A stretch of 54,339 nt of DNA from Moniliella sp. 'wahieum' (lineage: Eukaryota), in contig RSEE01000125.1 of NCBI GenBank assembly GCA_003971905.1, positions 124,001 to 178,339 on the forward strand, given 5' to 3'. The notes beneath the pieces are model-generated. The model saw only the letters and a list, made by a program, of their open reading frames with translations. It did not search any database and had not been told where the DNA came from. The first letter of the stretch is position 1, and each line of letters begins with the position of its first letter. Below, one piece after another: positions 8,446-48,341 of this stretch. The position numbers and the translations under genes are program-made.

Positions 8446-8756
8446 ATGTCCAGCAAACAGAAGGTGCTGGTGCAGCCCATCAACGTCATCTTCCGCCACC
8501 TGCAGGAGCAATCCCCCGTAAGGCTTTGGCTATACGACAACACCGCCTCCCGTATCGAGGGCAAAATTGCTGGGTTCGACGAGTTTATGAACGTGGTCCT
8601 CACCGACGCCTACGAAGTTCAAGTCAGTTCGGGCGAGCGTCAGCGTTTGGGTATGTTCTGTCTACTCTCCTTCGGGTTCGGATGCTGACACACAGAACAG
8701 GACGCATTCTTCTGAAAGGAAGCAACATTACCCTCATCCAACCTCTCAACGCATGA
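8446..8756 (+). CDS. SME1: Small nuclear ribonucleoprotein SmE
   Basis: VQPINVIFRHLQ...RIEGKIAGFDEFMNVVLTDAYEV...LGRILLKGSNITLIQ. Intron 8651..8700 (GTATGT...GCTGAC...AG) joins the exons in frame. Confidence 0.97.
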
Positions 8757-8964
8757 TGAGTCCCTGTCTTGTCCCCGCCGGTTTTGCAGCCCCGGCGAGG
8801 AGGTGAGCCGCTTGTCGTTCGCTCGAGACGAAGGATGGGGCGCTCAGTACTCCCTCTGGTGGCGGTATATTCTTCGCCCCCCCAAAAGACATATGTACTT
8901 GTAACTCTTCCGCCCCTCCTGCTTCTTCTGCCTGCTTTCTCGCTCTTCAAAGATAGTCGATCCA

Positions 8965-9633
8965 TTAGACGTCTGCCAGAGGCAGCGCGATACTGCCTGA
9001 ACGAGCCTGCTCGCCATATGCCAACAATCCTACATGAGGCATCACGTTCCACCGTAATACCAACGTTGTCTCGTTCACACCCCTGCATGTAGGTCAGCAT
9101 TGCAGTCGTACGCCACCCGAGAACCAAACAGCAGGATTGGAAAACGTACTTGAACGTGCGTCCTACCTCGCGCAACAGGTACTTGGCCTTGACGTGGTCC
9201 AGCACAAGATGCGCATCTTGACGGTCCTGCACAATGTGGTCCACAGCACTACTTCGTTCGACCTCCGCACCTGGCCAGGGGGAAGCGCCTTGACATCATT
9301 GGGCCTTGGCCGCAGCACACGCGTCTTTTTCTTGGGTGGCATCTCGTACACCGCACTCAGCGTGACAAACACTTGCTTCGTATTCCAGTTGAACAAGCCG
9401 CGCAAGTCGGCATCCAGCCCAAACTCGAGCGTTGCCACGTCTTGGAGCGGGCGGTGAGCATACCCATACCCCGGGCGCGCACGGAAGACTTGCAGGTCCC
9501 GCACCTCGACCGATCCGGGCAAGGGCGCGTAGCCAAATGGATAGGCCACCAGTGCGACAGCCCCCATCAAGAGAAAGAGCACGGTTGTTGCAAAGGAGGT
9601 GATGCTGTTGAAGCGCGATAATGTGCTGTGCAT
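8965..9633 (-). CDS. SPC3: Signal peptidase complex subunit SPC3 (SPC22/23)
   Basis: MHSTLSRFN, an N-terminal TM segment, DADLRGLFNWNTKQVFV, NEVVLW(D)HIV and LVLRWNVMPHVGLL. Intron 9149..9083; one apparent frameshift near 9241. Confidence 0.95.
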
Positions 9634-11509
9634 CCCCGCGATCATCCTCGTCGAAAGCGGTAGGCAGATGGGAGGCGTAGCGAGGTGGGGGACGACGGCC
9701 GACAGCCAGCCAGCATCTGGGCGGCTACGTGGCATAGTTTCAAAATTGCACGTCCCCCGTTGCATCGGACCTATTCGCAACTGCCCGCCATGCGCCCCTA
9801 CCACTGTTAGTACTTCCTCTCAACCCTCTGGGATGAGGAACTGAGTGCTCATAACGCGCACAGGCGTCAAGCGCTTGGTGACGAGGACACACACGACCTT
9901 CGTACTTTGTTGCAGTACGCGGCTGGTATGGCCTGCTCACATACCTCATGGCTCCTCGGCCTCTCCAGCCGCAAAAGAAATCCTGCTTTTACGTCGCGCC
10001 ATTGTCCCGCGCCTGGACACCCCAGGCGGCGTGGCGGGTAGGCTACGAGAGAAAGTAAGCCAGTGTAAGGCGTCGCGTACTTGTTACATAACATGGCAAC
10101 ACACTGGCTGCCAACCCGGCGACCAGTTGGGACAGCTGCATTGCCCTCACCTCCTTCCTCACACTTCCAAGCGTCCACCGGGCACACATTTGTCCTTCAT
10201 ACCGATGCTTGGCCAACGATGCATCCGTAGTCACGGGAGAGGAGCACATCCTTTGTCTCACGCTGGACCTCGACCGCTCGGTCAGAGGACACGACGCTGC
10301 CGCCGAACCTGTTGCCCGAAGGACCGAAGGGGGGAAAGGCGAAGCAGCCTGTGTTGCCAGCGGTCTGTGTGGATCCGTGACACGCATGGGTTGCGCTCAA
10401 AACCTGGGTGGGGATGTACGGCCGCAGATCGTACTAATCCGCCGTTTGAGGTGGAAGAGAGTCTACCGGGAGTGGTGAAGCCGGCCTCCGACCTACAATC
10501 GCACGCCGGGGGGTGGCCTTGGACCGGACACCTTTTTTGAAACGCGGTGTATCGTCGCAGGCCCCGCCACCGCCACTACCTTCTTGGCCAGCCCAGGCAA
10601 GATACTGACCATCCGAGGTGTGCTTTCGAACCACCCACCACCTCCATGGCCCCCTTGGCAACGACGGGAAACAAACTATCCATCACAGTCATCATGGCTT
10701 CTCCCGGGATACCCGGGATGTCCGGGATATGTTCGGCGAGACGAGAGACGGCCGTTGGCGGCGGATGGGTTGTGCTCTGAGGCATATAAGCCGACGGATG
10801 CAGCTCGGGGGCCGGTAAACAGCTAATGACTACCAAAACACCGCGTGGCCCTCTCTGGCGCCCACCCAAAGTGCACACGCTGTGTTTCCGCAAGTCCATG
10901 CAACCTGACGTGCTTGACGCCGCCTGGCGCTGACGCACCCGAGCGATGATCTAGGGTGGTCAAGCTCTTCTATCCGGTCTCGTATGCCCATCACGCACCA
11001 TCCCCCGAGAGGCAGAGGAGAAAGAGGGAAGACACCGGCCTCATCGGCCACATATACATCCCAGGGGCCGGGAGCGGAGATGATTGATTTGATCTGAGAT
11101 CTGAGAGGACAGTGAGGTTGATGAGGATCGCTGAGGCAGGTGGGGCCTGGTGGGACATGGTGGGACAGGTACGCGAGGTATGCGGCGGAGAGAGACTGCG
11201 ACGTGGGCAAGGCGGGGGGTCCCTATGAACTAGTAACTACTAGGCGTGATAACCGAGTGGGAACCGCTCCGGTGGCAGGCACGGGGGGACAGTGCGGCTA
11301 CTGTCGGCCGGCAAATTCGAGTGGTGTCCTGGCTGCTACTGGCTGAGCGCGTTTTGGGGGCGGCGGCAGCGTGGACGTGGGCGCTGCGGGCTGAGCTCCG
11401 GCAAAGGGCCATCTGCTTTGGTGCTTGCAGGCTGTACCATAAGTATCCTCCCTTTTCCCCTTCCCCCTTTCCCCCAGCACCCCCTCTCCCTCCTCATCTG
11501 CTGTCCGAC

Positions 11510-12914
11510 ATGGTCAAAGTCGCTCTGCTGTGCGTTGCTTTCCGATGCAACCCTCTCCCCCCACCACACAGGGAGAGAGGACTGTTGATTGGGGCGGAGT
11601 ATATACTGACTGCCGACCTTCTCTTGCTTTGGTCTCGCTGCGACCCAGTGGCGCGTCCGGCAACGTGGGCCAGCCGTTGGCGCTGCTGCTGAAGCAATCA
11701 CCCCACGTCTCTGAGTTGGCTCTCTACAGCCGCAACCACACCCCCGGCATTGCTGCTGATCTGTCGCATGTGCCGAGCAAAGCGCGTGTCACCGCCTTTC
11801 TGCCGACCGGCCATGGTGGGGGCTGCCTGCTGCTCTCGCAGATGCTGGGGTGGTGGTCATCTGTGCTAGTGCCGCCTTCCGGCCAGGGATGGAACGGGAA
11901 AGTCTGTTCCAGCTGAACGCAGCCATTATGGTCGAGATGGCAGAGGCGATTGCACGCTATGCGCCCCCGACCGCTCTGGTTGCCGTTGTTTCCAACCCTG
12001 TCAACTCGCTCGTCCCCATCGTAGCCGGCGTGCTGACCGCCCGAGGAAGATACGACCCGCAACGGTACGCATTTCCCTCCCGCACCCCCTCCCTCCCCCC
12101 GCGCGCGCCTATCTCTTTCTCGCTCTCTGTCCTATTAGGCTACACACCATTGTCAAGCATGCTAATGCTTTGCATCAATCAGCTTGTTTGGTGTCACCAC
12201 CCTCGATCTGTTCCGGGCCGAGACGTTCGTTGCGTCCGAAATGGACGACCCAGAGGTAGCTACTCGGGTCAAAGTCCCTGTTGTCGGGGGCCATTCGGGC
12301 AACACGATTGTGCCGTTGCTCTCGCTCTGCCAGCCAGCACTTCCGCCCTTGCCTCCAGAGGAGGAAACCCAACGGTACGTGATGCTCACCCACCGTATCC
12401 AGACAGCGGGAACCGAGGTGGTACAGGCCAAAGCGGCGGCAGCAGGGGGTTCAGCTACCCTCTCCATGGCCGCTGCCGCGGCCCGGTTGATCTTTGCTCT
12501 GATCCAGGCTCGTGCCGCGTCGCCTTCTTCTCCCTTTACAGAAGAAGGGTATGCAATGGTCGATCTCTGTCCGATCCAGACGGAGGGGACGAGGTACGCC
12601 ACCGTCTGTTTTCCCATTTGCCTCGTGCCGTACGGGAACGGATGAGGTTCTGTGCAGTGCCAATCTTACTTGATTCGGGAATTGGGAGCGTTCAGCGTAT
12701 CCTTCCGCTTCCCGATGCTTCCACGCTGCATCCGACCGAGCGGGACGCTTTGGCCCTTGCTGCGCCACGCTTGGTCCAAGATATGGATCTCGCCACACAG
12801 TGGCTTGCGTCCGCCTCCCTTTCGTCCCCGATGGGCGGGGTGGGGGTGGAATCAGCTGCGCTGGCCCACATGGCATCCGCCCCCGATTCAGCCAAGTGCG
12901 CTGTGACCGTATAG
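11510..12914 (+). CDS. Malate dehydrogenase-family (mitochondrial/glyoxysomal MDH-type fold) paralog with altered cofactor and substrate residues; no N-terminal presequence
   Basis: [61 protein letters not shown] and [13 protein letters not shown]...GSATLSMA. Introns 11530..11648 and 12065..12182; apparent frameshifts at about 11820 (G run) and about 12565. Confidence 0.93.
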
Positions 12915-13157: not shown

Positions 13158-14347
13158 TCAGGTACGCTTTTTTGCTTCATCGATAGAATAGGACCCCGCT
13201 CCCATGTTGACTACGAGCAACAAGCCGCCAACGATGCTCAACGTTTGAAAGAAATCGTAGCGGAGGAAATCACGGGACGGATGGCTGGAATGTACGCTCC
13301 AAAAGTTGTTGACGGCCAAGTTGAAAAATGAGAGAAGAAGGATGAGGAAAGATGCAGACCAGCGCGCTTTGAAGCCAACTGCAACCATGACGCATGCGAC
13401 CAAGCCAAGCGGGGCAGTAAGAATGCGCAACAGCGTCCAGTTGCCGTGGCAGACAAAGCCGACAAACAAGCCGATCAGCAGGACACGGCCCGCGAGCTGC
13501 AGGTAGATGTTCTTGCTTGGTTCGGAAAGGGTGGGTAGACCAGCCAAGAGCGGGTGCCGGGATTTCTTGGAGAGCGAGTCGGAAAGACACATCAGCAACC
13601 CCCCTCCAACAGAAAAGTTGCGCAGGAAAAAATTCCAGTCCAACAGCACGCCGTACCCGATACCTTGCAAGAAGATGATGCCCCAAAGTGAACTGACAGC
13701 CGAGACGGGCACGCGGCGTGCAATGAGCAGGATAGATGCACAGACCATCACCACCACATTAACCGAGAGGAAGACATGGCCAATCCCCCAGTACATGTGT
13801 CGTTCTTGGGTGAGATAGTGAACCTGGTCAGGCCATTGGCACACGATCCGAACCGCATCTTCCAAAAAAGTCGCCACGATCAAAAAACGGCCGAGGGCCG
13901 GATGTAGGGACGTAGGGACTGAGTGTAGGCCTCGATCATGTCCTCAGTTCCGGATGACCAACGACGGAGCTGGTGAGGTAGACATGCTCCGAGGTAGCTG
14001 CGAGGTTGACGTGAACCCAAATTCAGATGATGGGGCAAAGCCGCCCGAATACGAGGCAGCGGGCGCATGCGAGAACGAATGTGGCGAGGGTGAGCATATG
14101 TGTATGCGTATGCGTTTCCATATCCGTTTTGGGATCCCAAGCCGGGCCCAGCTCCTGACCCACTGTACGACATGGGCCGGGCATGGTTGGGCCCGACGCG
14201 CCCGGATCGCGGGTGGGCGGCGTAGCTTCCGTGTGGGGCGTGCTGGGACCCAATTCTACCTGGCAAGGGACGTGTACTGACCGAGGCGTAGTGGCGGTGG
14301 CCAGGTCGCGCGCTGCGCCAGCTCCGCCGTACGTAGGCGGAGTACAT
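13158..14347 (-). CDS. ERV29: ER-derived vesicle cargo receptor Erv29/SURF4
   Basis: (GRF)LIVATFLEDAVRI, FFLRNFSVGGGLL, LAGRVLLI, DFLRYDFFQTLSIVGGLLL and a C-terminal dilysine motif SIDEAKKRT. Frameshift at about 13900; start codon uncertain. Confidence 0.93.
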
Positions 14348-21799: not shown

Positions 21800-21930
21800 G
21801 ACAGTTGAGGTGGTGGCGCAGGCAACCCCACCGCGTGCTGAAGCGGTCGCCACCCGCCCTTACTATTGGGATCGCCGCCGCTGATTAATGATTCCGCCGC
21901 GGAAACCGATCCCCACACTTGGTCTCTGAT

Positions 21931-21998
21931 ACTACCACTACCACTGCCACTAACACTACCACTACCACTGTCACTACCACCACCACTACCACTACCAC
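21931..21998 (+). repeat. (ACTACC)n hexamer microsatellite in the short divergent promoter between the small TM gene and VAM6
   Basis: About 11 imperfect ACTACC units. Confidence 0.9.
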
Positions 21999-22045
21999 CC
22001 ACCGCCACCCCCTCCACCGTTCCCCTGTCATCCCCCGACATTGGC

Positions 22046-25000
22046 ATGATTGACGTGCTGTCGGCGACGGCAGTGGCCACCGCTCTGCATGAGACGCCGA
22101 CTGCGCTGCTTGCCCATGGGGACCGCCTCTATGTCGGGACTGCCTCGGGCTCCTTGCTGGTGTATGTGCCATCGGCGTCCGGCGAGACGATGCAGTTGTC
22201 CACCCAGCGGCGCGCACTCTCCCCGCGCGCCCGGCCAATCGACGCCCTCGCGATCGCTAAGGAGATTGACTGCCTCGTCGTCCTTTCGGATGCCAGCGTT
22301 TCGCTCTGTGTCCTGAGCGACCTTACCCTCGTTCCGCCCAGCCCACTTCCGCAAACACGCGGTGCTCTTGCCGTAGCTGTCGATACCTCGGTGCAGCCGC
22401 GGCGCCGACCTTCGCCTGACCTTCCGCGCTCATCTTCCGCCTGGCGCGTGGGGGACGACTCGGCCCGGTTGGCTCGGTCTTCCCGTTCTCCCCTGCAGGC
22501 TGTGGCCGGGCTGCGTGGCATGGAGACGCTGGCAGCCGAGAAAGAAGCGGAGCGGAAAGCGCTACGCGCGCGCATGCGCCACGACGAGGCATGCCGTCTC
22601 AGTGCTTCGGTAGCCGATGGGGACGACCCAGGGGCTTCGGAGCTGACCCTGGTCACTACCCTTGTGGTGGGGGTTCGGCGCAAACTCCTGTTTTTCCGCT
22701 GGGTCGATGGTCAATTTTGGGACACGCGCGAAGTCCCTCTTGCACATTCGCCGCGGTCCATTGTGCTTCCCACACCCACCACCCTCGCAGCTGCCTACAG
22801 CCTGACCGAATACACTCTTCTCGACCTTCCTCTTGCTTCTGAAAGTTCCACCTCCTCTCATCATACTGGCCAAGACGCCCAAGCCACCGATCCCTTCGCC
22901 ATTCCACCCTCCAGCGCTTCTGGCCCCTTGGTAGACTCGGCCTCCTGGCCTGCGCCTCACGACATCACCCTGCCCCCACCCGCAGAGACGGTGCCTACAG
23001 CCTCCCCTGATGGGTACGCAGGGTTTGGTGCGGCCTTGGGCCAGTTGCTCGTCCGCGCTGGGGCGAAGCAGCGCGACCCGCGCCTGGTCGTCGTGGCGGA
23101 CGACAAGTTGCTCTTCTGTCGCCGGGAGACTGGCACCTTCCTCTCCCTTGCACCTGGGAGGAAAATGGGAATGGAAAAGACGACCTGCTCTGGCCTACCG
23201 TACCCGAGACGGTCGTCGCCCTGAAGCCTTACATTCTCACCCTTTTGCCCCCTCATGGTCACGAAGCCACGGCCTCCTTGGTATCTCGGTGGGGCAGCGG
23301 AGGCGGTACCTCCCACCCCACCCATCCTGCTGGCGTCCAACTCACCTCACCTCAGACGGGGGCAGTGGTACAGGAACTGGCCTTGTCGATTGACCAAGCC
23401 GAGGCTGGCACGACGACGCTCCTCCCGCTTGCTACTGTCAACAGCAGTGCGACCAAAGCGCAGGCGTATGTGGTAGCTGTGTCTTCGGAGAGCGCGGCAG
23501 CGGAAAAGGTGGGCGCGACGATTTTCCGACTGGACTTGGTCTCGTGGGCCGAGCAGGCGGATGCGTTGGTGCGGTCGGGGGAGTACGTGGAAGCGCTGGC
23601 CCTGCTTGACAGTCTCGATCCCGCCCGTCTGCCTGATCGAGAGGAACGACGACGGCTAGTACGCACCCTGCGGGCGGTCACTCTCTTCTTGACCACCGCT
23701 ATGACGAGGCGCTATCAGACTTTATTGCGTTGGAAACCACACCTATTGTGCTGGCATTGTACCCTCCCTCGATCGCTGGCGACCTAGCCTTGCCCCCTGC
23801 CGAGTGGCTCTCCGCCTTTGGTGCACCTACCACGCCCGCCAAATACTTGGCCCGTCGTACCTCCCGGCCCCCTCGCGCGATCTCAGCACCGACCCGACCG
23901 GATCGCCATTGGCTTCGCCGTCCAGCACCCTTCCCGCTCGCTCACAGAGCATCCGACTCTCCCACTCTTTGGTCCCGGCGGACCGTACCAGCCTGGCCTC
24001 GGTCGGCAGTGGTCGAGGGTCCCTTGGGCCTGGAAGCCCCGTTGTGGCAGATGGGATGGAGGAAGGGGAGCCAGAACGAGAACGAGCACGCGCCCGGCCG
24101 CGTCGGCGTCCAAACGTGCTGCCAAGCAGCTCGACGCTCTGCAGAAGGACAAACGCCATTCACTCGATGCGCTAGGCAAGTTCCTAGCTGACCGAAGGAG
24201 GATTTACCAGTCGCTGTTGGAACGACACCCCGAGTCCCATGTGGCCCAGACCAAGTCGCAACAACATACCGATGCCTTAACTTTACGTGCCATCCCTTCT
24301 GTCCCTCTACACGCACTTTCCCTCGAGCAGCTGGCGGATGTGGCGCGGGTGGTGGACACGGCTCTGCTCAAAACCTTTCTCGAGACGAAACCGGGATTGG
24401 TGGGCTCGTTGTGTCGGTTGGAAAATTGGTGCGAGGTAGATGAGGTGGAGCAGCTCTTGTCGTCGGCAGGCAAATCGTCCGAGCTGATTGCGCTGTATGG
24501 CGGGAAGAATATGCATGCCAAGGCGCTTCAGCTGCTGCGGCAGTTTGGGGAACAAGTCACCATCGAGGAAGAGGCCGATAAGGAGGAACGGTTGGGTCCG
24601 ACGATCCGCTATCTCCAAAACCTCGACCCTAAGCATCTTCCTGTCATTTTGGAGGCGTCCCATTGGGTCTTGGAGGAAGATCCGACAATGGGACTGGAAA
24701 TCTTTACTGCCGATACGGGCAAGGTGGGCTCGTTCCGCAAAGCCTCCGTCACGGCCGATCTTCAGCAATTTGACCCCGCCTTGGCCATCCGGTACCTCGA
24801 AACCATTGTGGCTTGCGGGGAACAGGACCCAGCTCCCACGAGAAACTGATCTTTCTCTCACTAGAGCAAGCGGGCAGTATGAAGGTGGGATCCGACGAGC
24901 GCAGTGCCCTTCTCACCAAACTGCTCTTGTTTCTCAGGTCTTCTCATAGCTACCATGCCTCCCACGTTCTCGCCCGCCTGCCTGTTGCAGGCGCCCATGA

Positions 25001-25832: not shown

Positions 25833-26149
25833 GAATGGACTACCCTGCCCTGATGGTGGGCGATGCACTTGCTCTGGGACGAAGGGGTGGCTTTGCTTGG
25901 TTGGGCAGAGCAGCACCGATCGACAGAGGTGGGCCCCGTCTGCCAAAGAAAGGTCCCCTACCGCGCTGGTCCCCCCAGCAACACAACATAGGATGCAGAA
26001 CATGAAACAGATCTTTTTTTCAAAAATAAAATAGAACCCAGTGGGCTGCCTGAAGCCTGAAGCTTCGAGCAAGTCCAAGCTGGACGTCGGCACCTTTTCT
26101 GGGACGCGGCTGCTGGCCGGATGGCTTTCTGTCCTGCCTTGCTGCCACC

Positions 26150-26901
26150 ATGATTGCTACGCCGTCGACATCGCATGTCAAGCGGACAGAGTGGGAGGAG
26201 GTGTACGAGCCAGCGGAAGATACGTTTGCGCTGCTGGATGCGCTCGAGGCGGACGCTGCGTTGCTCCGCGCCCACCCGGCGCCGCTGGGGTGGAGAGGAG
26301 GGAGGGGCGGTGTGGTCAGTGCGTTTACCGCTGCGCTGCTGCCGCACAGGGGGTGGCACTGGCTACCGACCTGAATCCTGTCGCGGCCAACGTGGCGCGC
26401 AGGACGGCGGAGGCGAACCAGGCGGAACCAATGGAGGTGGTGGTCACGTCGCTGCTCACGGGCCTGGCGCCGCGGTTAAAGGGCAAGGTGGATGTGCTGC
26501 TGTTCAATCCACCCTATGTGCCCACGACGGAGGAGGAGGAACAGATGGCGCAACGCGCTGCGCCGCATGCCGACGCGCCCGCCCTGGCCGCCGCCTGGGG
26601 GGGGACAGACGGGCACCAAGCTGGTGGAGGCGCTGTTGCGGGCACGGCGCTGGCGGGGGGCGTGGCGCTGGGGGAGCTGCTGGCGCGGGGGGCGTGCTGT
26701 ACCTGGTGGCCATCAAGCAGAACGACCCGCCGGGGCTGGTGCGCCGGATGCAGCAGGGGCTGGAGGCCGAGGTACGTTGGGCGTGTGGGGGGGATGGTGG
26801 TGGTGGGGGGCTATGCTGACGGCGGGGACTAGGTTGTGTTGGCGCGCCGGGCGGGTGGGGAGCATCTGCACATCCTCCGCGCGCGCAAGCCAGGCGCATG
26901 A
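26150..26901 (+). CDS. MTQ2: eRF1 N5-glutamine methyltransferase (HemK2/N6AMT1 family)
   Basis: MIATPSTSH...EVYEPAEDTFALLDALE, ATDLNPVA and VDVLLFNPPYVPT. Intron 26772..26832, then VVLARRAGGEHLHILR. The SAM-binding motif I region is garbled by indels. Confidence 0.93.
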
Positions 26902-27436: not shown

Positions 27437-30400
27437 ATGCTGTGCCTGCCGTCGGGGCTGCATGCGCACCGCCCGCCCCATGCCGCTGCCCACGACGCCC
27501 CCCCCGCCGCCACCACGCGCCCTGCTGCCCACGCCCACCCCACCGTCATTGGCGCCGTCGCCGCCGTGCGCACCCACGCCCCCGCCGCCGCCGAGCCCCT
27601 GGCCGCCACCCTCTTCCCCCGCCCTCCCACAGCCCACGCCGCCGACCGCCGCTGGCCCATCCGCTCCGCCACCGGCCGCCGCGACGCCCACTGGGTCTGG
27701 TCCAAGGGCGCCGTGCATCCCGCCAATGCGCCCCCCGATCAGCACGAGCTCGACGCCATCTGCGACTACTTTGGCTATGCCCGCCCCTCCGCCTCCCAGC
27801 CGCTCGGCACCAGCGGACACAACAACCCCCTTCGCACCGGTCCTCCCGCCCCCAACGGCCAGCCGAGCAACACCCCAGAAGGCGTCCCGTCCCGCCTGTA
27901 TCTCATGGTACGCTCTCCGCGTCCGCTCCTACCTCGCGCCGGCTAACTTTCTCCCTCCCCCCCCCCCCCGGCAGATGCTGGCCGATGCACTGCTGCCGCT
28001 CCCACGCCACCCGATGAACGGCGTCGTCTCGCCCGCCTTGCTAGCTACCACGGGCATCGTTCCCCTTTCTATCTTTAGCACCGGCCCCGACATCATTGGC
28101 CACTACTATGACTGCATCATCTCGGCCCGCCGCGAGGTGGTGGTGATGACCAACTATTGGCAGGGCGGTCAAAACGTCAACAAAATTTCCGATGGCCTCC
28201 GCGAACTCAACCGCCGCGAGGCTGCACGCCAGCGCAACCACACCAGTCGTGCCGAGGAGGTGCACGACCCACGCGCGCCCGGGCAACCGCCCCGCAAAAG
28301 GATCGTTGTCAAGGTTATGTGGGACCGCGGTCCGCGCACGGTGGGCGACTTGTTCCGCATGCGCACCCCTGTGCCCATCTCGGAGTGGAAGGAGAATGGT
28401 CTTCCCACCCCGGACGAGGTGGAATGTCTACATATGGAGGTGCTCAACTACCATCGGCCTATCATGGGCACCTTCCATGCCAAGCTCCTGTTGGTTGACC
28501 GCCGCGTTGCCCTCGTCAACTCGAACAACATCCAAGACCGGCCCAACCTCGAGGCCATGGCCCGTCTTGAGGGCGACATTGTCAATTCGGTGTATGAGCA
28601 TGCACTTCTCTCTTGGGGCGTTGCCATGGACCCTCCGCTGCCTTGCTTAGAGGTGCCTGCGACGGCCGCCGACCCAGGAACCATGTCTTTTGCCTCTGTT
28701 TCCAGACGAAAGTCCCTCTCGGCACGACACAAGCCTCCCGTCAAGCTCGATGAAAATCCCCACGTGCCTCCAACGGAGGTACGACCGGGCCCCGCTGCGT
28801 CCGAGGACGATTTGGCACGATTGTCCAATATGACCATTATGAATCTGCGGGAACGGGCGCAACATGCTCGCGCAAGATTGCAACAAGATGCGGACGAAGC
28901 CGAGGCGGAGGAACTCAGTGGTGGCAACCACCGTCATTTGGCCGATGTGATCGCGTCCCGTCGGCGTCGGAACAGCACCTCGGTCGATGGCCAGCCATCG
29001 TCGCCCCACGACGAGGCCAAGCCCAGGTTTTCGGGGCCCCGTTCAGATGGAGAGCGACGAGGAGACGGCGTGGGATGCAGCACGTAAGGCCGGGAACCAG
29101 TGGCGCCAAAAAGTGCTCGGCGACCGCTTTTCCCGCCCTTCAACCACAGCAGGCACGTCGAGTGAAATCCCGCTCGAGGAGATCCACCATGCTTCCACGG
29201 TGCAGGCCGCACCGCCCGAAGGGGGGAGCCGAACCTTTGCAGACGTGGTGGAGTCCCTCATGCAAAAGGAAGGCATCCATCCCCCGGCTGGGCAGATGGT
29301 GCGTTGGATGCGCTAGGTATCGGTGAAAGTTCGTCCAAAAATGTAGCCCAAGAAGCAAGACGAGCCCGCGCGGCCCGACAAGGCCAAGTCCACGTCCCCA
29401 CCACGGTGCATGAGGAGGACCAGCTGTCACGCACCATGACGGCGCCCTCAACGATGACCCACGTAGCGCCTAGCGAGTGGCCGCAGACGCCGCGGTCCAA
29501 GGCGACGCTGGTGTCGTCGCCCCACGATAAGGATAAAGAGAAGGAACGAGAAGGGGGCAAGAGTGTCGGTGTGCGGAAAAGCAAACAATCTGTGCGTTCG
29601 TATGCATCCACAACTCGCGCTGGGCCACTGGACGACGCTCTGCAGCCCCACCCGGATGCGGCGCCGGGCGCCGAGGCACTGCACCATGCTGCGCTCAGCT
29701 CGCCGCCAACTCCTAGTAGCTTGCCCATTCCTGATGACGCCGACGCGGAGGATGGGCCGCCTGGTCTGCAGGGCTACCATCGTGCGCATCACGTGTCCCA
29801 CACCTTGCACCAGTCGGCTGCCGAACGCCTCAACAAGACCACGGGCCGATTGGACTTTGCCAACAACTCCAAGGTCAAAGGGGAGATCACGGCTGAGCGA
29901 CTGCACCGGATGAACCATGGGTCGGCACCAGCTGTGTCGGCGCCTGCGGTGCCCAATGGCGCGAGCGACTCGAGCTCGGACCCCACCACGGTACCTACTA
30001 CGACTACTGCGCCTACCACTGTGCCTGGCGCGTTGGACGAGGAGGAAAGTGCATCGTGTGGGTCGGGCGAGAGCGGGGCAGGTTCGATGGCACACGAAGA
30101 TGAGATTGTGTATGACCCGACGGATTTTAGTCCGTACATTTTCCATCGGCCCCACCGGCCGGTACCGATGGCATTGGTCAATCGTCGTCCGCATGGCACG
30201 CCGGGTCACTCGGACATTCGCAATCCGCAAGACGCCGCCTGGCTCGCCGGGTTCCGCTATGCCCAGCACATCTTTATCCAGACGCCGACGTTGAATGCTG
30301 CGCCGATCAAGGCTGCCGTCTTGGCTGCCGTGCAGCGCGGGGCCAAGGTCGAGCTCTGGCTTGATCTCGGCTTCAACGACAAGTCCGAGTCCATGCCGTT

Positions 30401-30794
30401 CCAGGGAGGCACGAACGAGCAGGTGGTCACGGGCATGTTTCGCTACCTCAAGTCGCATGCGCCTGAGGCACGGAAGAACTTGCATGTGTACTGGTACACG
30501 GGCAAGGACATGACCCGTCCACTCAATGCGGTGCGCAAACAACGTAATTGCCACGTGAAATTTGCTGGGTTTGATGGCCAGGTGGCCATCATGGGCTCGG
30601 GCAACCAGGATACCCAGTCTTGGTTCCATTCCCAAGAGATCAATGTCATGGTCGACGACCAGACCATCGTCCAGGAATGGATCGATGCCCTGCGCCGTAA
30701 CCAGTCCACCCACATTTACGGCCGCGTCGACGATGATGGTATCTGGCGCGGTCGCACAGGCACCCAAAAGGTCGACACGGGCAAGGAACACTGA
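27437..30794 (+). CDS. Phospholipase D/nuclease-superfamily protein with two HKD motifs and no PX/PH domain
   Basis: HAKLLLVD...NSNN (28476-28499) and HVKFAGFD...GSGNQD (30552-30575). Intron 27908..27974; frameshifts in the inter-domain linker (about 29040 and 29290). Confidence 0.88.
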
Positions 30795-32793: not shown

Positions 32794-34863
32794 ATGTCGA
32801 CGCCAACGGACGAAGGTGCGTCTCCGTGTTCTGGCTTCGCCCGTTGCTAGGCTAATTCTTCCCCCTCTGTCTGCATTCAGTCCACGATGCCGACTCGGTG
32901 ATGCCCCCCCACGAAACTGAGCGCAGCGGCACCAGCTCGGACAGCCCAGGCGCCGCCACCCACCTGCTTTCGCTCACCGCCGCTGAGCGCCTGGACCGGA
33001 TCCTTTATCCGCGTGACTGCTTCACCTCGGACAAGATTTACTGGGCCGACCTACCGTCCCGCCGCCGCATGCGCTGGGTCAATGCTCAGAACAACGCTGA
33101 GGCCAAGCGCGAAATTGGCGTCATCTGGCGCATGTTCAAGAACGACCCCCTTTCGCCACTCGGTGCATACTTTCAAAACTATGCCATCACCGGCCTTGGG
33201 CTCTTTGTCGAGGGCTACACTCTGTTTTCTGTCGGCAATCTCCAGCCGCTCTTCAAGATCGTCTGGCCCGAGTGCTGGAAGACATTCAAGGTCTGCAACA
33301 AAACCTGGACCGAGGCTACCGACTATCTTCAGATCATTGGCATTGTCCTCGGCCAGTTCTGTGTCGGTATCGAGTCTGACTGGATTGGTCGTCGGTTCGG
33401 CATGGTACAGAATGCACTGATCATGACGCTAGGCAGTATCATGCTGACCGCCATGTGGGGTACATCCCTCAACGGCTGGGTCATCTGCTATGCTTGGTGC
33501 CAGTTCGTCTACGGCTTTGGCGTTGGTGGAGAATATCCCATCGTCGGTACCACCTCTATGGAAAGTGGTAAGGGGATGGGTGCGGATGAGCGGGATCGCA
33601 TGCATCGTGGTCGCCGCGTGCTCCTTTCCTTCCTTATGCAAGGATGGGGACAGGTGGCGAACCAGGGGCTGCTCATCATCCTCATGCTCATCTTCCACAA
33701 CCGCTTGGGCGACACTGATTACAACAAAACCTCGACCCAGTGGACGTTCCGTGTTTCGTTTGGCATCATTGCTGCCTTTACCCTCTTCCTTGCCTACCTT
33801 CGTTTCTACCGTATCAAGGGCGTCGACGATGCGATCAAGGCCGCCAAGGCGCGGGCGGGACGACGTCAGGGTATGATCTGGTTTCCCTTAAGCTTGCCAT
33901 GGGCCATTATTGGCATCGCCTCATTGCGACTTGCCTTGGTTGGGGCGCCAACGATTTCGCCTTTTACGGCAACAAGACGTTTAGCGGTGTCTTTATCCAG
34001 ATCATCACCGCATCTGCGTCGGTTCGCCTGACTTGGCTCTACAACCTTATCAACGTGGGCGTCTCCTTGGCTGGATACTATTTGGCGGCACTGCTGATTG
34101 ACAACAAAAACTATGGGCGCAAGTGGATGCAAGCCAACGGGTTCATGATGCTCTTCATCCTCTTCCTCATTGCCGCTGCAGCGTACGAGCCGCTAACCAA
34201 GCAGGCGCAGGGGTCAAAGGATTTATGGCACTCTACTTCCTAATTGGGGTCTTCAACCAGCTCGGCAGCAACACCACCACCTTCCTCATTGCTGGTGAGT
34301 CCTACCCAGCCTCCATTCGCGCCACCGCCCATGGCATGTCCGCTGCCTGTGGCAAAATGGGCGCCTTGATTCCCGCCGCGCTCTACCCGCACATTGGTGA
34401 CCGGGCCAAGTTCTGGCTCGGGATGGGGCTAGCTGCGATGGGGTGGGTGGTCACCCTCATCTTTGTCCCAGACACGTCCGGGTTGGACCTGCGGGAGCTG
34501 GAGCGGTACTGGTCTTATGTTCGGGACGGCCGAGCGAACGATTACCACGGTGTGGCGGTGCACCCGCGCCACCTGAGCTTGTTTGAACGTGTGGTCCTCC
34601 ACCGCCATCGTACTTACAACCCCGAGCTGGATCGTCAAGCAAAGATGGACGAGATGCGCACCGCGTATGACGCTATGCGCGCCGTCAACGGGGTTAAGTT
34701 TGAGCCGTCGGACATGAGCGCCGAGCAACGTGAGTTCCTCGAGATGGAGCTTACCAGCTTCTTCAACTCGGACCGCAAACTGCGCACCCACGATGTGCTT
34801 GCCTCCCACGAAGCTGCCACCCACCCATCCAAGTTGGCAGCGCTCGAAAAGAAGTTGCATTGA
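32794..34863 (+). CDS. MFS phosphate:H+ symporter (PHS) family transporter, Pho84/Git1-related
   Basis: GLGLFVEGYTLF, SDWIGRR, GFGVGGEYP, MQGWGQ, WGANDFAFYG and NTTTFLIAGESYPASIRATAHGMSAACGKMGA. Intron 32816..32880; frameshifts at about 33855 and 34208. Confidence 0.88.
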
Positions 34864-35188: not shown

Positions 35189-37447
35189 TCAAATGCCATT
35201 CCAGAGACGCTTCAAGAACGGTTGGTTGGCCATCTGCGCCTTGTGCTTGGCCTCCGCGATGCCTGCTTCGCCTTCCTTGGGATTCTCCAACGCCCGCCCG
35301 TCATTGCCCGTGCCGTCGACCGCGTTCTGGGCCTTGCCCAAGTAGTAGTTGGGCATGTACAACCCACACAGGAGCGGGACAAACGACAGGCTCAGCGCGG
35401 CAATGAACATGGGCCGCATCGTCTCGTCAAATGCGGCCATGACTTTGATCCGGTCCTCGGAGCCCCAAGGAAGGGCATGCGCCTTGGTGTAGGACGCATA
35501 CGCCGACTTGGCCACCGCAGGGGACAAGCCCTGTTTGGCCAAGTTGACCGGATAGCGGCCCGTGTAGATCGCGCTGCCCACGGCCGATCCCATCGAGGAG
35601 CCAAGTTTGGTCCAGAGCGCCAAATTGGCCATGACCATGGCCAAATCTTGGTGCGGCACCGAAGCTTGCGACGCGACGCGCGTGCCCACCACCGAGCACG
35701 CGCCGCCCAACCCAATCAAAATTTGGGTAAAGGCCAAGGCAGTGTTGTTGGCATGCGAACCGCGAGCCCAGTAGGTGATGCCCATCCCGATGATCCGCAC
35801 ACACAGGCCAAACAGTTGGATGGCCTTGTAGCGGTGGGTGTACCGCAAGCACAGACCGGCCAGAATACCAAACAAGGTCAAGGCCACCGTTTCGGTCTGG
35901 GTAAAGTAGGCCCAGCTTTGGTTCGACCACGGCTTGATCACGTACACCCAGTCGGCCCAGAACGCTGAACGGATGAAGCCAGAGACTAGATGGAAGGTGT
36001 GTCAGTCTTTGCCTTCTTTCTCAATGCAAACCTTCTTCCTCCGATACGTGATACGATCGTGAAAAAGTGGCTGCGGGCTTGGGAAGGGGGAAGGGGAGGG
36101 GGGAGATGGTACATACACATGTAGAAGATATCAATTGTAGCTGCCAAGACAAAGGTCTTGTTGCCCCAGATGCGCTTGTTGACCATGGGCGCCGGAGCGA
36201 AGAAGACCTCCCAGGCAAAGAAAAGAAGCAGAATGACAAACCCGCACACAATCATAGCGATCATGCTCGGGTTGCCCCAGCCCCCGGCTTTCTTGTTGAG
36301 CGAAAAGGGGAGAAAGATGAGCGAAAAGGCAAACCCAAGCAGGATCAGGCCCACCGCATCAATGTCCACAAAAAAGTGATACAGTTGCTTCAAACGAGAC
36401 TGGGCACTCATACGTTCCACGGCAAACGTGCCCGCTTGCTCAGCGCGCTCCATATCAATCTTGCTCATGCCCACACCCAGCTCGCCACTCGCCTTGGCTT
36501 TCATGTCGGCATAGGTGAGTGTCAAAATGACGGGCGTAACAAAGACAGGGGTGATGATGCAGAACATGCCAAAGCCCCAGCGCCAGCACCCCGAATGGTG
36601 GCGGTCGCCGAGGTGGGACACAAGTGTCCTACCATCGTCGACGCGATCCAGGGAAGGAAGAGGTAACAAAAGTCTGTCATGGCGGTCGAGAAGCCACGCC
36701 ATTCGAGTGGGGTCAAATCGGCAATCACAATTTGGGTGATGAGACTAAGTCCAGCTTGTCCAGTGGCCGTAATGACGCGTCCTACACAGAGTGCCGTGCC
36801 GGTCGGCGAAGCGGCGACAACAACGTAGCCAACAATGTAGAAGGCAATCGTCACTGTGTACGCCATTTGCCGTGAGAAGGTGTCGGCAATCTTGGCTAGG
36901 AACGGTTTGGATACGGCGGCTGCAGTACGCGTAATACAAGACGAGATGTTAGCCCTATATTGTGCTCATCATACAAACCGTATAGTGTAGGGGGATGAAG
37001 CGGAAGAAGAATACGCACTGATCACACTTTGAACCGTCGCAATGGTACCAATGTATTCGGCCGCGTCAAAGTAACTTGTGGCGAACGTAAGTAGTTTAAA
37101 GGTAGAGGATTGGTCAAACACGTAAGCCATACTGGTCAGGGCCAACGACACATAAAGCATCCATGCCATCGCTGAGCCCCGGGCAAAAACACGATTGAAG
37201 GCCTCGATGCGGTTGATTCCCTTTTGTTGATGCAAATGTGCTTCAGCCACATTGGCACGTCCAAAGTTGGGGTTGTCCTCGGGAGCGCGGTGCAGATGTT
37301 CCTCCTCTACGTCTTCGTGTCCGCCCCATTCCTTTTGGTCCTTCAAACTTTCCGAGTGAGATTCCGATCCACCGTCAAACCGGTGCGACAGGTCATTCTG
37401 CCCCATTTGCTGGACAATGGGACCAGGTGGGTTACCTTCTCCGCCAT
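35189..37447 (-). CDS. ARN/SIT-family siderophore-iron MFS transporter (Sit1/MirB-like)
   Basis: QKGINRIEAFN, AVSKPFLAKIADTFSR, IVIADLTPLEWRG, DAVGLILLG, WGNPSMIAMIVCG, QASVPHQDLA and PNYYLGKAQNAV. Introns 37018..36920 and 36116..35986. Confidence 0.92.
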
Positions 37448-40463: not shown

Positions 40464-40892
40464 GGGGGCGATGGTTGTGGATGAGGCACTTGGGACTGGC
40501 GCTGCACCGAGCTGGAGGACCTTGGCCGCCTCGCAAATACGCGGAATTCCGCCCGAGGAAATCCTTACGTATGCCAGGCAGCTTCCACATTAACGTCAAC
40601 GTTCAACATTCAATTTGAGAGTACGTAACATTGGTCGTGTGTTCAATGTGCAATCATCCATGAGTTGAAACGTTCAATGCAGACCCCAATGGGGGAAATG
40701 GACCAACTCAGCCGAGCGATGGCGGCGATTATCGATTGGGCGGCAGACGGATAGATATATGGGGCGCGGGAAGCAGCACCTGCTGGTCCCGTCCGTCGGC
40801 TGGCTCTTCCTGCTGGGCGCTAGCCACCCGTATTCCATCGCTCTGTTAGATGTCCCCCCCCGAGCCATGCAGTGGAAAAGATGCAGTCGCGA

Positions 40893-43800
40893 TTAAAATG
40901 TTTGCCACCCGCCCGAATCGTGGGTGGCCTCAATCTTGCGCGCGCCACCAAGTTGGGCAGGCCATGGAGCAGCCACTGCCGCCGCAGCTCGTCGTAGCGT
41001 TCCCGGTGGAGATGCTGCGGGCGTCCCTTGCACAGCCCAATGTCCACCTCGCCATGCGAATCGAGGTAGGGCGAAAAGGTAAACGTGCCGTGTTCCTCGC
41101 ACAGGACCAGAATCACATTCGTCTTGAGTTTGAAGAACAGGCCCACCGACCCACACTCGTCCCGGTGCACGTTGCACTCGCCTCGCCCTTCGTCCGACTG
41201 GCAGCAAAACGACTGGTAGCATACCACCTCGCCACACAGCAGACATACCGCCGGGTCGGCAGGCACGTCGCCGCACCGCGCACACGGCCGCAGCTGCGTT
41301 TCCTGCAGCAACGTCGCCATGTCCGTCGGCAGGTCCACCAGCTCGTACACACCCGGGTGCTCGAGGAGCAGGATGGGCTGCTGCGGCATTCTTTCGCTCG
41401 GCAGTTGGATAGGCAAAGGCTGGAAGAGCGAAACAAAGGGCACATACGCATGCTTGATCCAGCCATCAATGATGCCCACCAAACTGGTCTGTCGACCCGA
41501 GCGCGCGGGCAGTGCCGAACTGGGCAACTCAATGTCGAGGTGGTGCATCAGACGAAGGTACTCGGATTGGGATGCCTCTGGATCGGTCGAGCCAGAATCC
41601 CGAACGGGTCCGGGACCAAATACGGCAGAACGTAGCAGCGCGGCGCGGCGCAAGAAGGGCAAAGTGTGGGTGCAGAGCAACTTGGCCAACGTATCGTCCT
41701 CCAACCGGTCCACACCGAGGGAAATGTTGCCGCGTTCGTAGCCGACGAGGCCGATGATGTTGGCCACGGTCCAGCGTACGTCGGGGAAGACCTGACGTGC
41801 GGTTTGGAGGTCGAAGGAGTCAATCCCTGCCTCGCCACGACGGAAGAGGGAACGGTAGGCGTCCCCCGAGGGCGGCCAGAGACTGGGCTGAGCCAAGCCA
41901 AAGACGAGCTGGACAAGGGCTACATAGAACATGAGGGAAATGATGTGGTCCAGCTCGGCGGGCATCACAGCAGCTGCTTCAATCAGAATGCTAACCGGGT
42001 CCCGTAGGATGAGAGGCGACCGCACGGCCTCATCCACCGTCCAATGGGGCAAAAGACGCTTGAGTAACCCTTGACGGATCACGTCCGCTCCGCCCTCGAC
42101 GGAAAGGTGCATTCGTAACCGCAAAGTGTGCAGCAAGCCCCGTAAAAGGTGCGAGGTAGCATCGTTCAGCGTCTCGACCACCGTCGTCCTCGTTGCCCGT
42201 CCACGTGAAGCAACTTCCAACATGGACAAGGTGTATCCCACCACGTCTTGCGGTAGGTAGATCTTTCGACTGGGAAGAGCCAGGATGGTACGTTCCTGCA
42301 TCCGACCCATCATGCCTTTCATCTCCTCGGCCTGCAGGTGGACCACTTTCTGAAACCGCTCCAAGGTGCCATCCATATCCTCCTCCCACAGCCCCACCTT
42401 ACCCACCGACGCAAGCGTGGGGACCGCAGGGGTTTCCGAGGCATACCAGGGGGTAAACGTGCCCGACCCACTTGATTCCTGGACATTGCCCTCACCCGCC
42501 AGCGTAGCACATCAATGTTGACCTTGCGAATCCAGTCCGGTAGGGATCGCCGGTCAGGCGTGCACGCAGGTTCCACGAGCGAGGCGGACCGATGCGAGTC
42601 GGGCAGAGGGAGGTGTGTTGCCCAACGCCTTGCACAGCGGACACTACCTCCAGCCGGTCCACATTTTCGGGAAGGCGCCTACCGTGTCCTGTGGCGCGGG
42701 CTTGGGCGTACGAGGCAAAGCACACGCTGTGCATCATGTGTCCACAGGTACTTGCGTACAGTCCAGGCCGATTGAACGAAGGAGGGAAAGCGCCTTTTGG
42801 ACGGAAAGGGTCGGGGTGGTCCCAGGTTGAGAAGTTGGACGGGGGGCCTCGTACGCGAGGAACGCCTTTCTCCCCTGCCGGCCCATCCCCACGGTCAAGC
42901 GTAAGTGGGGCAGCTACACTCTGCGCCAGACCTTCGAGATCCGTGTTGGGAAGGATGCGCATGGTGCGGCTCTGCTGGATATGAACCAACATCCCAAACG
43001 GTTCGGCCGGTGTCAGCCCCTCTTGACATAAGATGCACGAGCCATGTTTCAGCGTCACCTCATCGTCCGTCTGCAAGAGTTCAGGACCCTTGGCCTCGAC
43101 GGGTGGCACGTCCTCCGTGGGGGTGGCGGAAGGCCCCGTTTTCCTCGTCCAAGGTCCGCAACAAATTCTTCTGCTGCTGTGAAAACTTCTTCATAATCGC
43201 TGCTTGGCGCGAGCGGGCAGCCGCCCGGCGGGCCTCCAAGCGCTTCGCCTCCTTATCCTCTTCACTAGGGGTGCACGCAACGTCTTGCCCTCCGAATGGA
43301 AAATGTGAGTGAGACGGTCGAGACCACCATGGTCGTGAGCGAGTTGGACTGTCTGCTCCAAAACAAAGTTGATCTTGCCTCGAACGCTTGATGCTCGCTC
43401 GCTGTTCTCTAGTCGGCACAGGAGCAGGAGCAAACTTGCTCCACTCGCAAGAGGGTCCATCAGCTTCTGCACAAACACAGGCCCTGTGTCACCATACCCG
43501 CAGAAACGAGTTGGAGTAACGAATCCAGTAGCGACTCTGGCACGTCCTCCTCCAATTTGTTCACAGCCAACAGGGTCCCCTCTAACGCTAGTAGCAAACT
43601 GTTCGAGACGAAAATGGCGTGGAAGGCAGGTTGGTCAAAGAGGGTGCCCGGGACGATTTTGGGCGTACGCGCGGCCCAGACAGACAAGGGATTGGCGCCA
43701 TCGTCGAGTTTGCCGCCGTGAGAGTTGGCAGCGACAAAACGAGCAAGCAGAATTTCTTCGACTTTCTCACGTTGGTTGCGCGTGTAGTGGCGACAGTAAG

Positions 43801-46800: not shown

Positions 46801-47141
46801 GGCTGGGCGGGAAGAGGAACTGGGCGGGGGGTTGCCGAACGGCTCGGGCACGGACGAGGTGGTCCAGAGCGCCTCGGCCATTGCTTCGGGCGCGGGGGGC
46901 ACGAAGTCCGAGGGGGCACGGCGGGAGGAGCGGCGGCGGCGGAGGTGGAGGCAGGGGGCAGCGGGATGGGCTGTGCGAGCGGATGGGAGGGCAGATAGGC
47001 GGCGAGAAAGGCGGGCAGGCTGGGCCACCGCACGTGGCCGTCGGGCTGCGTGCGCACCCGCTGGGCCGCGAGCGGCGCCCACACCTGCGCCCGGCCCGTC
47101 TGCGCTCCGCCGGCAACAAGCACGCGTTGGCCCGCCGTCAT
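40893..47141 (-). CDS. UBR1: N-end rule E3 ubiquitin ligase Ubr1
   Basis: UBR box CGHIFRRGEAFYRCRDC...CVQCAPCF...H...CCDCG; ClpS-like LWNDENHDF; VSFHHPLHW; GMWVRNG; RING region CILCQE...STCGHMMHSVC; C-terminal CLLCGEVVC...SPYLDSHGEVD. Intron 45205..45155; many apparent frameshifts. Confidence 0.96.
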
Positions 47142-47411: not shown

Positions 47412-48341
47412 ATGGCCACCCCCGTGCTGGCCGCTGCCACCCCCTCCGCCCTGCGTCCAACGCCCCCACAGCCGACAGCGCCGGCATCGTCACCTTCTTC
47501 GCCGCCGCCGCCAGTCTGCCATCGACACAAACCGCCGATGCAACGCTCCTCTCGCTCCTCCTCGCCGAGCTCCCGGCCGCTCTGCGCCAGTCCACCATCG
47601 CCGCCTCCGACCGTGTCGCCCATCACACTGACCAGCTCCGAGAGGCTGGCTTCCACCACACCCTCGCAGACCCACCCGATATGGAGGTGCAGACGCTAGC
47701 TCGCCTCGACAAACTCGGCGCCCATGTTGGCGCAAACACGGCTGAGCGGTACGTGACCCTCCCCCCCTTCTTCCCCACACGCTTACCCTTCCCTCCATGG
47801 CAGACTCTGTGCGCTTCGCCCTCCTTTTGGAAGTGTGCTCGAGGTACTCAAGTTTGTCTGCAAGGATATGTGGATCCACCTCTGGGAACGACAGGTGGAT
47901 AACTTGCGTACCAACCATCGCGTACGTCCCCCCCTCCCCCTGTCCATGTCCCGCGCTCCCAATTCCTGGTGCCACTCCTCCTTGCTAACATACATGATCC
48001 AGGGTGTGTATGCTCTCCAAGTCAACCAATTTGTCCTCCTCCGCTTTCTCGGCGTCTCCTCTGGCAATGCCTTTGCCCGTCTCGCTCGGCCCCAACTTGC
48101 CTGGGCCGCGGGCGTGGTACGCGGCGCCCTAGGCCGACTCGGCGTGCCAGCTACGGTGACGGTGGATGTACTTCCTCTCCCTCCGCCCGGCGAAGAAACT
48201 GCGCCGCTGGGACACAACAAATTCCTCCCGCCCGTCCTGTTCAATGTCAAGACGTTCCCCTCTCATCCTGCGCCTGCTCCTACCGTGACCCGCGCCTCTT
48301 CCACTGCCACCTCGACACGGCCTTCCGTCCTCTCCCCTTGA
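47412..48341 (+). CDS. TRS33: TRAPP complex subunit Trs33/TRAPPC6 (Bet3 family)
   Basis: RLDKLGAHVG...ERL, LEVLKFVCKDMW...QVDNLRTNHRGVYALQ and GVVRGALGRLG. Introns 47749..47803 and 47922..48002. Confidence 0.93.

Follow-up and report, generated by a model that had tools for sequence, protein, structure and literature searches.

LDHs that derive from MDHs remain NAD-dependent and have gone through no cofactor switch. They provide the precedent for a duplicated malate dehydrogenase (MDH) that changes its substrate through the residue-102/R81 position, as described for the apicomplexan LDH in the available text of PMC4109310. Elsewhere in the LDH/MDH family, NADP(H) is used by the chloroplast NADP-MDH (EC 1.1.1.82; for example that of Flaveria, 1civ), which lacks the Asp at the end of strand beta-2 and carries a strictly conserved Gly there; according to the accessible part of PMC11882521, this enzyme belongs to another branch, 'Mdh type 2', as opposed to the NAD-dependent 'type 1' Mdh. 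It keeps its malate specificity, unlike what is predicted below for the protein studied here.

In the E. coli enzyme, both kinds of specificity have been altered by design. Residues 34-38 are the site of cosubstrate specificity and Arg81 is a key determinant of substrate specificity, the activity of the R81Q variant with oxaloacetate being far below that of the wild type (PMC11461317, available portion). Asp34 clashes with the 2'-phosphate of NADPH; its replacement alone (D34G) yields similar activities with NADH and NADPH, while D34G:I35R gives an NADPH activity nearly six-fold above that with NADH and a specificity shift of more than 1000-fold (PMC11882521, available portion). In a D-lactate dehydrogenase, the changes D176S:I177R:F178T lead to the use of both cofactors, as reported in the accessible text of PMC4842997. 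On the substrate side, I12V and R81A turn E. coli MDH from oxaloacetate to another 2-oxo acid, and the complete design, Ec.Mdh 7Q (I12V:R81A:M85Q:D86S:G179D + D34G:I35R), is an NADPH-dependent 2-oxo-4-hydroxybutyrate reductase, again following the available portion of PMC11882521.

Here we analysed a gene lying in the window, by which we mean the whole 54,339-nucleotide stretch of DNA under study. Its predicted product, the window protein, belongs to the same clade and scaffold as Ec.Mdh 7Q, and four of the seven engineered positions given in the accessible part of PMC11882521 are changed in both, with I to V, R to F, D to S and I to R in the window protein; the changes corresponding to I12V and I35R are identical. 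In both proteins the Asp has given way to a small uncharged residue and R81 to an uncharged one. The natural protein differs from the engineered one at 34 (Ser instead of Gly) and at 81 (Phe instead of Ala), and it keeps M85 and G179 and has Glu for D86, where Ec.Mdh 7Q carries M85Q, D86S and G179D. We propose, with a probability of roughly 0.45, that the gene encodes a neofunctionalised 2-hydroxyacid dehydrogenase that would accept NADP(H) and act on a changed substrate, and that is active or was so until very recently.

Exon structure and a frame break in exon 2

The gene could be modelled on the forward strand as four exons with the following features.

11510-11529, + strand: exon 1, ATG start, encoding MVKVAL plus 2 nt, no presequence (window sequence; homologue starts)
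11530-11648, + strand: intron 1, predicted, 119 nt, GTGCGT..CAG (joining restores the glycine-rich loop of the homologues)
11649-11820, + strand: exon 2, first part, codons from 11650, glycine-rich loop and strand beta-2 (Ldh_1_N, E 6.2e-8; PDB alignment)
11722-11748, + strand: motif L-Y-S-R-N-H-T-P-G, with AGC at 11728-11730 (Ser for Asp) and CGC at 11731-11733 (Arg for Ile)
11818-11822, + strand: G5 run and frame break (MDH homology leaves frame 1 and continues in frame 0, with one base too few)
11823-12064, + strand: exon 2, second part, frame 0, helix C, strand D, active-site loop and NPVNS (Ldh_1_N, E 3.7e-18)
11877-11882, + strand: Phe-Arg pair, TTC CGG, where homologues have Arg-Lys (E. 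coli R81-K82; gap-free alignment to homologues)
12065-12182, + strand: intron 2, 118 nt, GTACGC..CAG (removal observed in a 315-nt contig)
12183-12593, + strand: exon 3, TTLD..R, GGHSG (catalytic His codon 12292-12294) and GSATLSMA (Ldh_1_C, E 3e-21)
12594-12646, + strand: intron 3, predicted, 53 nt, GTACGC..GAG (keeps the frame; the next exon aligns gap-free to homologues)
12647-12914, + strand: exon 4, last MDH helices and an extension of about 32 residues, ending VTV; TAG at 12912-12914

The first-pass annotation of this DNA had described a protein starting MVKVALLG without a presequence. This start is borne out, being obtained across the 119-nt intron 1, and the fungal proteins P0050, P0058 and P0126 start at the same position; the open frame upstream (11237-11509) contains no other ATG. 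At the other end of the gene, the GAG acceptor of intron 3 is of a rare type, but it is the sole one that keeps the frame, and the exon following it matches the conserved [FY]F[SA]xP..L stretch of the homologues without a gap. An alternative, better-looking CAG acceptor at 12655-12657 shifts the frame and leads to a stop after 5 codons. A GTACGC..CAG intron 3 was accordingly rejected as the functional form, as it truncates the protein; it is possible if the gene is dead.

After splicing, the reading frame in this assembly carries a one-base break at 11818-11822. With P0126 as the tblastn query, two HSPs abut at window positions 11817 and 11820 and both contain query residue 64, leaving no room for an intron, so that the break itself is not an intron. 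The only in-frame rescue is the 56-nt segment 11786-11841, a cryptic intron of the form GTGTCA..CAG, whose removal would delete strand C and helix C. We rejected it as the ancestral structure, its interior encoding MDH-homologous residues and its donor being GTGTCA. In the reading we favour, the break would be an assembly error or a very recent lesion. Among the neighbouring genes, the Pfam matches run unbroken over 248 residues in SURF4 and over 434 residues in PRT6_C, and because of these long unbroken matches the assembly does not appear to be riddled with indels.

The C-terminal extension (12816-12911, + strand) of about 32 residues is rich in Ala, Ser and Gly and occurs in no aligned homologue. 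The window protein has no PTS1 or SKL-like end. From the missing presequence together with the missing SKL-like end, a cytosolic location is predicted.

Family placement and conserved residues

The protein belongs to the LDH/MDH superfamily, as judged from Pfam matches above the curated cut-offs for both domains: Ldh_1_N scored 66.4 bits (cut-off 27) and 33.2 bits on two N-terminal pieces, and Ldh_1_C scored 76.6 bits on exon 3 (cut-off 22.6). The top PDB matches (4wle, 2dfd, 1mld, 1smk, 8j5d and 1emd) are all dimeric MDHs of the mitochondrial, glyoxysomal, plastidial-NAD or E. coli type. Pfam, the PDB matches and the tree thus agree on membership of the mitochondrial/glyoxysomal-type MDH clade, to which the gene had already been assigned at first pass.

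A maximum-likelihood tree of 36 rows, made up of the 22 homologues most like the query and the named taxa in the alignment, with 107 of the 142 homologues left out, placed the window protein next to the fungal non-mitochondrial (peroxisomal/cytosolic) MDHs P0058, P0050 (Leucocoprinus) and P0123 (Collybiopsis) with support of only 89/85. Its terminal branch is long, 1.46 changes per site against a median of 0.17 (8.6 times the median), and about three times longer than those of the neighbouring fungal rows (0.5-0.6 changes per site). The amino-acid composition of the window protein deviates from that of the alignment, and its best whole-model identity is 51-52%, to P0058.

The window protein and these fungal enzymes have in common the presequence-free start, the domain order and the catalytic residues. 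Where the fungal enzymes have D-I and R-K, the window protein has S-R and F-R, and their insertion before the last strand is partly missing from it. P0058, P0126 and P0050 end in CKL, SKL and ARL, respectively, which are peroxisomal signals, whereas the window protein ends in VTV after its extension.

To describe the divergence by position, we used an alignment of 142 homologues of 295-400 residues, taken from 162 library matches with 20 shorter or longer ones excluded, and defined as near-invariant the 89 columns conserved in at least 95% of sequences. The window protein keeps 70 of these columns and changes 19, compared with a median of 0 changed columns in the other aligned sequences, among which the highest complete ones have 15 and 10. 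Changes occur in the glycine-rich loop (G to N, I to V), in the cofactor pair (D-I to S-R) and, within the active-site loop, at a glycine (G to S), at the R-K pair (now F-R) and at one aspartate (D to S). Seven of the 19 changed near-invariant columns belong to the loops for cofactor and substrate; the other twelve are spread out, most of them in the C-terminal domain, and several are glycines. The catalytic His (GGHSG), the Asp and Arg of TTLD..R, NPVNS, the second loop arginine and GSATLSMA are all retained. In particular, the His-Asp pair and the C1-carboxylate arginine expected of EC 1.1.1.37 (E. coli H177, D150 and R153) are present in GGHSG, TTLD and LFRAE. The long branch and the deviant composition fit relaxed constraint as well as they fit a new function.

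Transcription and the state of the gene

A 315-nt contig from a public sequencing run (X1), 98.7% alike to the window, joins 12063/12064 to 12182/12183 with GT..AG ends. This indicates that a near-identical relative transcribes the gene and splices out intron 2. The contig spans 11979-12063 and 12182-12410 only; the motif, the G run and intron 3 lie outside it. Three differences from the window are listed, at 12020, 12288 and 12336, and all three are synonymous third-position changes, a fourth difference being unlisted. Over the covered 313 nt, a random single-base change would be synonymous in about 27% of cases, and a transition in 34%, so three of three would arise under neutrality with a chance of roughly 2-4%, a figure that applies to the three listed substitutions and leaves the fourth aside. 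The GC3 of 0.64-0.73 resembles the values of neighbouring genes and does not tell a living gene from a dead one. Past the frame break, about 290 codons still read in the ancestral frame across two introns. An unrelated open frame of 384 codons spans the entire gene; open frames are cheap in such GC-rich DNA.

The strongest competitor of our reading is a young pseudogene, that is, an MDH duplicate that came under relaxed constraint and is now frameshifted, in which the NADP-like signature would be a by-product of decay and the transcription residual. We regard this as a serious possibility, if a less likely one than our own reading. The frame break in the G5 run, with no room for an intron and with a sole in-frame rescue (56 nt, 11786-11841) that would remove strand C and helix C, fits a pseudogene, yet the codons downstream of it, some 290 in number, have stayed in the ancestral frame over two introns. 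Decay could likewise have produced the 19 altered near-invariant columns, the lost glycines of the C-terminal domain and the terminal branch of 8.6 times the median, but every catalytic residue survives, and 7 of the 19 altered columns cluster in the cofactor and substrate loops. The intron 3 acceptor that looks best truncates the protein, and the C-terminus has no PTS1 and carries an odd extension; against these points, the relative appears to splice intron 2 correctly, with only synonymous differences at the three listed sites, and the GC3 resembles that of neighbouring genes. The unbroken domain matches of the neighbours, which speak against a generally error-prone assembly, count on the side of the pseudogene.

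The cofactor-discriminating pair

The codons at 11722-11748 are CTC TAC AGC CGC AAC CAC ACC CCC GGC and translate in the exon frame to L-Y-S-R-N-H-T-P-G, exactly as first reported. They had also been called in-frame and indel-free. They are indeed in frame with the start; the frame, however, breaks about 70 nt downstream, at 11818-11822. In a gap-free alignment of exon residues 1-53, human MDH2 (4wle, 2dfd) and pig mitochondrial MDH (1mld) have LYDIAHTPG here, and all 21 PDB matches to the N-terminal exon at E<=0.001 are named malate dehydrogenase. The Ser/Arg pair had been taken to occupy the cofactor-discriminating positions, and this assignment agrees with the residues 34-38 of E. coli MDH identified in the available portion of PMC11461317.

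The acidic residue at the end of strand beta-2 that is expected of a malate dehydrogenase EC 1.1.1.37 (E. coli D34) is Ser in the window protein. The column holds Asp in 141 of the 141 aligned full-length homologues that have the residue, and the column after it holds I, V or L in 141 of 141, where the window protein has Arg. A regular-expression count found Asp in 153 of the 162 library matches, the nine unmatched being three without the N-terminus and six that have Asp by eye. The change from Asp (GAY) to AGC takes two base changes and that from Ile (ATH) to CGC another two, making four over adjacent codons.

With Asp replaced by Ser and followed by Arg, the window enzyme should accept or prefer NADP(H). 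This prediction is reasonable because D34G:I35R at the same two positions raised NADPH specificity more than 1000-fold in the E. coli scaffold, as stated in the accessible text of PMC11882521. That the window protein, if made, accepts or prefers NADP(H) is, on the strength of this analogy, well founded but unproven.

The substrate-selecting loop

In the loop, the arginine responsible for selecting the C4 carboxylate (E. coli R81; 102 in LDH numbering), likewise expected of EC 1.1.1.37, is replaced by Phe, and the following Lys by Arg. The column of R81 is Arg in 141 of 141 homologues and that of K82 is Lys in 141 of 141. The gap-free alignment of the active-site loop shows no insertion able to re-register the arginine. 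The identity as an MDH given by the first-pass annotation is not supported here: because the equivalent of R81, invariant in all 141 homologues, is Phe, "malate dehydrogenase" is doubtful and probably the wrong name for the present function. Judged from the residues of the loop, efficient malate dehydrogenase activity with Phe in place of the C4-carboxylate arginine is unlikely, and a neutral or hydrophobic 2-oxo acid is the more likely substrate.

One could nonetheless suppose a true NADP-dependent malate dehydrogenase, in which the Arg one position after the lost arginine would bind the C4 carboxylate and oxaloacetate/malate would remain the substrate. The loop does hold an arginine beside the lost one (F-R for R-K) as well as a second loop arginine, and the S-R pair with its D34G:I35R precedent (PMC11882521, available portion) would serve this enzyme equally. 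Yet R81 is invariant in the 141 homologues, no loop insertion re-registers the arginine, and the R81Q variant is much less active than the wild type with oxaloacetate (PMC11461317, available portion), which makes this an improbable reading; partial compensation by the Arg that replaces the neighbouring Lys might occur, but is the less likely case. A functional enzyme that still prefers NAD(H), other parts of the pocket compensating for the S-R pair, is likewise improbable: losing the Asp is not enough to impose NADPH, as D34G alone gave similar activity with both cofactors, but it removes the ribose-binding carboxylate, and adding Arg at 35 in the same scaffold gave NADPH preference (PMC11882521, available portion).

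A candidate NADP(H)-accepting 2-hydroxyacid dehydrogenase

In the reading we favour, that of a neofunctionalised dehydrogenase, the locus would be a four-exon gene of a basidiomycete related to Ustilaginomycotina, with its origin among the non-mitochondrial fungal members of the mitochondrial/glyoxysomal-type MDH clade, and evolving unusually fast. The catalytic machinery, comprising the His-Asp pair, the arginines equivalent to E. coli R87 and R153 and NPVN, is retained, while both specificity determinants are altered. On the cofactor side, Ser stands in place of the beta-2 Asp, the residue that holds the adenosine ribose and repels a 2'-phosphate, and the Arg after it could bind that phosphate, so that NADP(H) would be accepted or preferred. 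On the substrate side, Phe has replaced the arginine of the loop, the partner of the C4 carboxylate of oxaloacetate; oxaloacetate/malate would then probably no longer be preferred, and the enzyme would act on an uncharged or hydrophobic 2-oxo/2-hydroxy acid instead. Without a presequence or an SKL-like end, it would presumably work in the cytosol.

A stronger form of this proposal, which we put forward tentatively and consider rather unlikely to hold in full, is that a duplicate of a peroxisomal/cytosolic MDH has made the engineers' double switch in nature, exchanging NADH for NADPH (D to S, I to R) and abandoning oxaloacetate (R to F), and would thereby be a cytosolic NADPH-dependent L-2-hydroxyacid dehydrogenase for which the mitochondrial-type MDH clade has no described parallel. 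Should the gene prove active, a core NAD-dependent MDH would here have altered its cofactor as well as its substrate in nature by exchanging a handful of residues, four of them at positions that protein engineers also chose. The LDH/MDH family would then offer a clean case of neofunctionalisation, and the protein could serve as a natural template for NADPH-dependent 2-oxoacid reductases. Should it be a pseudogene instead, it would be a caution that invariant specificity residues can decay into a textbook 'switch' signature.

Searches for relatives

The S-R/F-R variant of this known MDH clade rests on one sequence, and no orthologue of the window gene was found in the protein or metagenome searches. 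Exon 3 was compared with 5.8 billion proteins at longer lengths, where 7006 of 8000 scored candidates matched at E<=0.001 and the best 120 were all at or below 62% identity. Against 1.84 billion representatives, the same exon gave 952 matches, none of them at E<=1e-30, with identities of 42-65% among the 150 matches listed. In the search with the N-terminal exon, 42 of 65 candidates matched and none exceeded 64% identity. JGI metagenome contigs yielded at least 9 confirmed loci among at least 596 pattern matches, at identities of up to 68%, and Asp was present at all 9 MDH loci recovered. Prokaryotes were searched with a strict degenerate pattern at the DNA level, L-Y-x(second codon base C or G)-R-x4-P-G-[VI]-A-x-D-L-x-H, which looks for a non-acidic residue before Arg and is written for bacterial spacing only. 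Over one genome for each of 185,579 species it gave 3 chance matches, none of the three being an MDH.

The neighbouring SURF4 has a best identity of 65-67%, to Ustilaginomycotina, and on this ground the source is a basidiomycete to which no sequenced species in the protein library is closely related. Because the lineage is so thinly sampled (SURF4 at best 67%), the lack of orthologues says little about uniqueness. In the literature covered, to which subscription journals did not belong, we found no description of an NADP-type fungal enzyme of the mitochondrial-type MDH clade, nor of a fungal MDH paralogue neofunctionalised to such an enzyme.

Genomic neighbourhood

The genes around the locus are housekeeping genes, and no metabolic cluster hinting at a substrate was found among those in the window. 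Pfam matches identified an SPC22 signal peptidase (8627-9819, - strand), SURF4/Erv29 (13161-13943, -), a CNH+Vps39 protein (21842-24846, +), a small-domain methyltransferase (26035-26829, +), a PLD-like protein (29166-30791, +), a sugar transporter (32856-34860, +), UBR1 with zf-UBR, ClpS, winged-helix and PRT6_C domains (40823-47137, -) and a TRAPP subunit (47757-48338, +).

A sugar-transporter/MFS fragment at 36525-36965 (- strand) covers profile positions 53-149 and finds no continuation in neighbouring ORFs of at least 130 aa; it could be what is left of a gene, or a gene that has diverged strongly. The segment 2001-4000 has a GC content of 71% and holds several overlapping open frames of 250-540 codons on both strands, with no Pfam match. 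At the start of the window, a cyclic-nucleotide phosphodiesterase gene (PDEase_I, 371-1715, - strand) is split over three frames, with one frame change near 916-964. About 47 nt separate profile positions 134 and 143 at this junction, and the only in-frame GT..AG segment there is a 44-nt GTCCAC..CAG; this is a weak and very short intron, or else the window has a second frame break here, a point that bears on the indel quality of the assembly.
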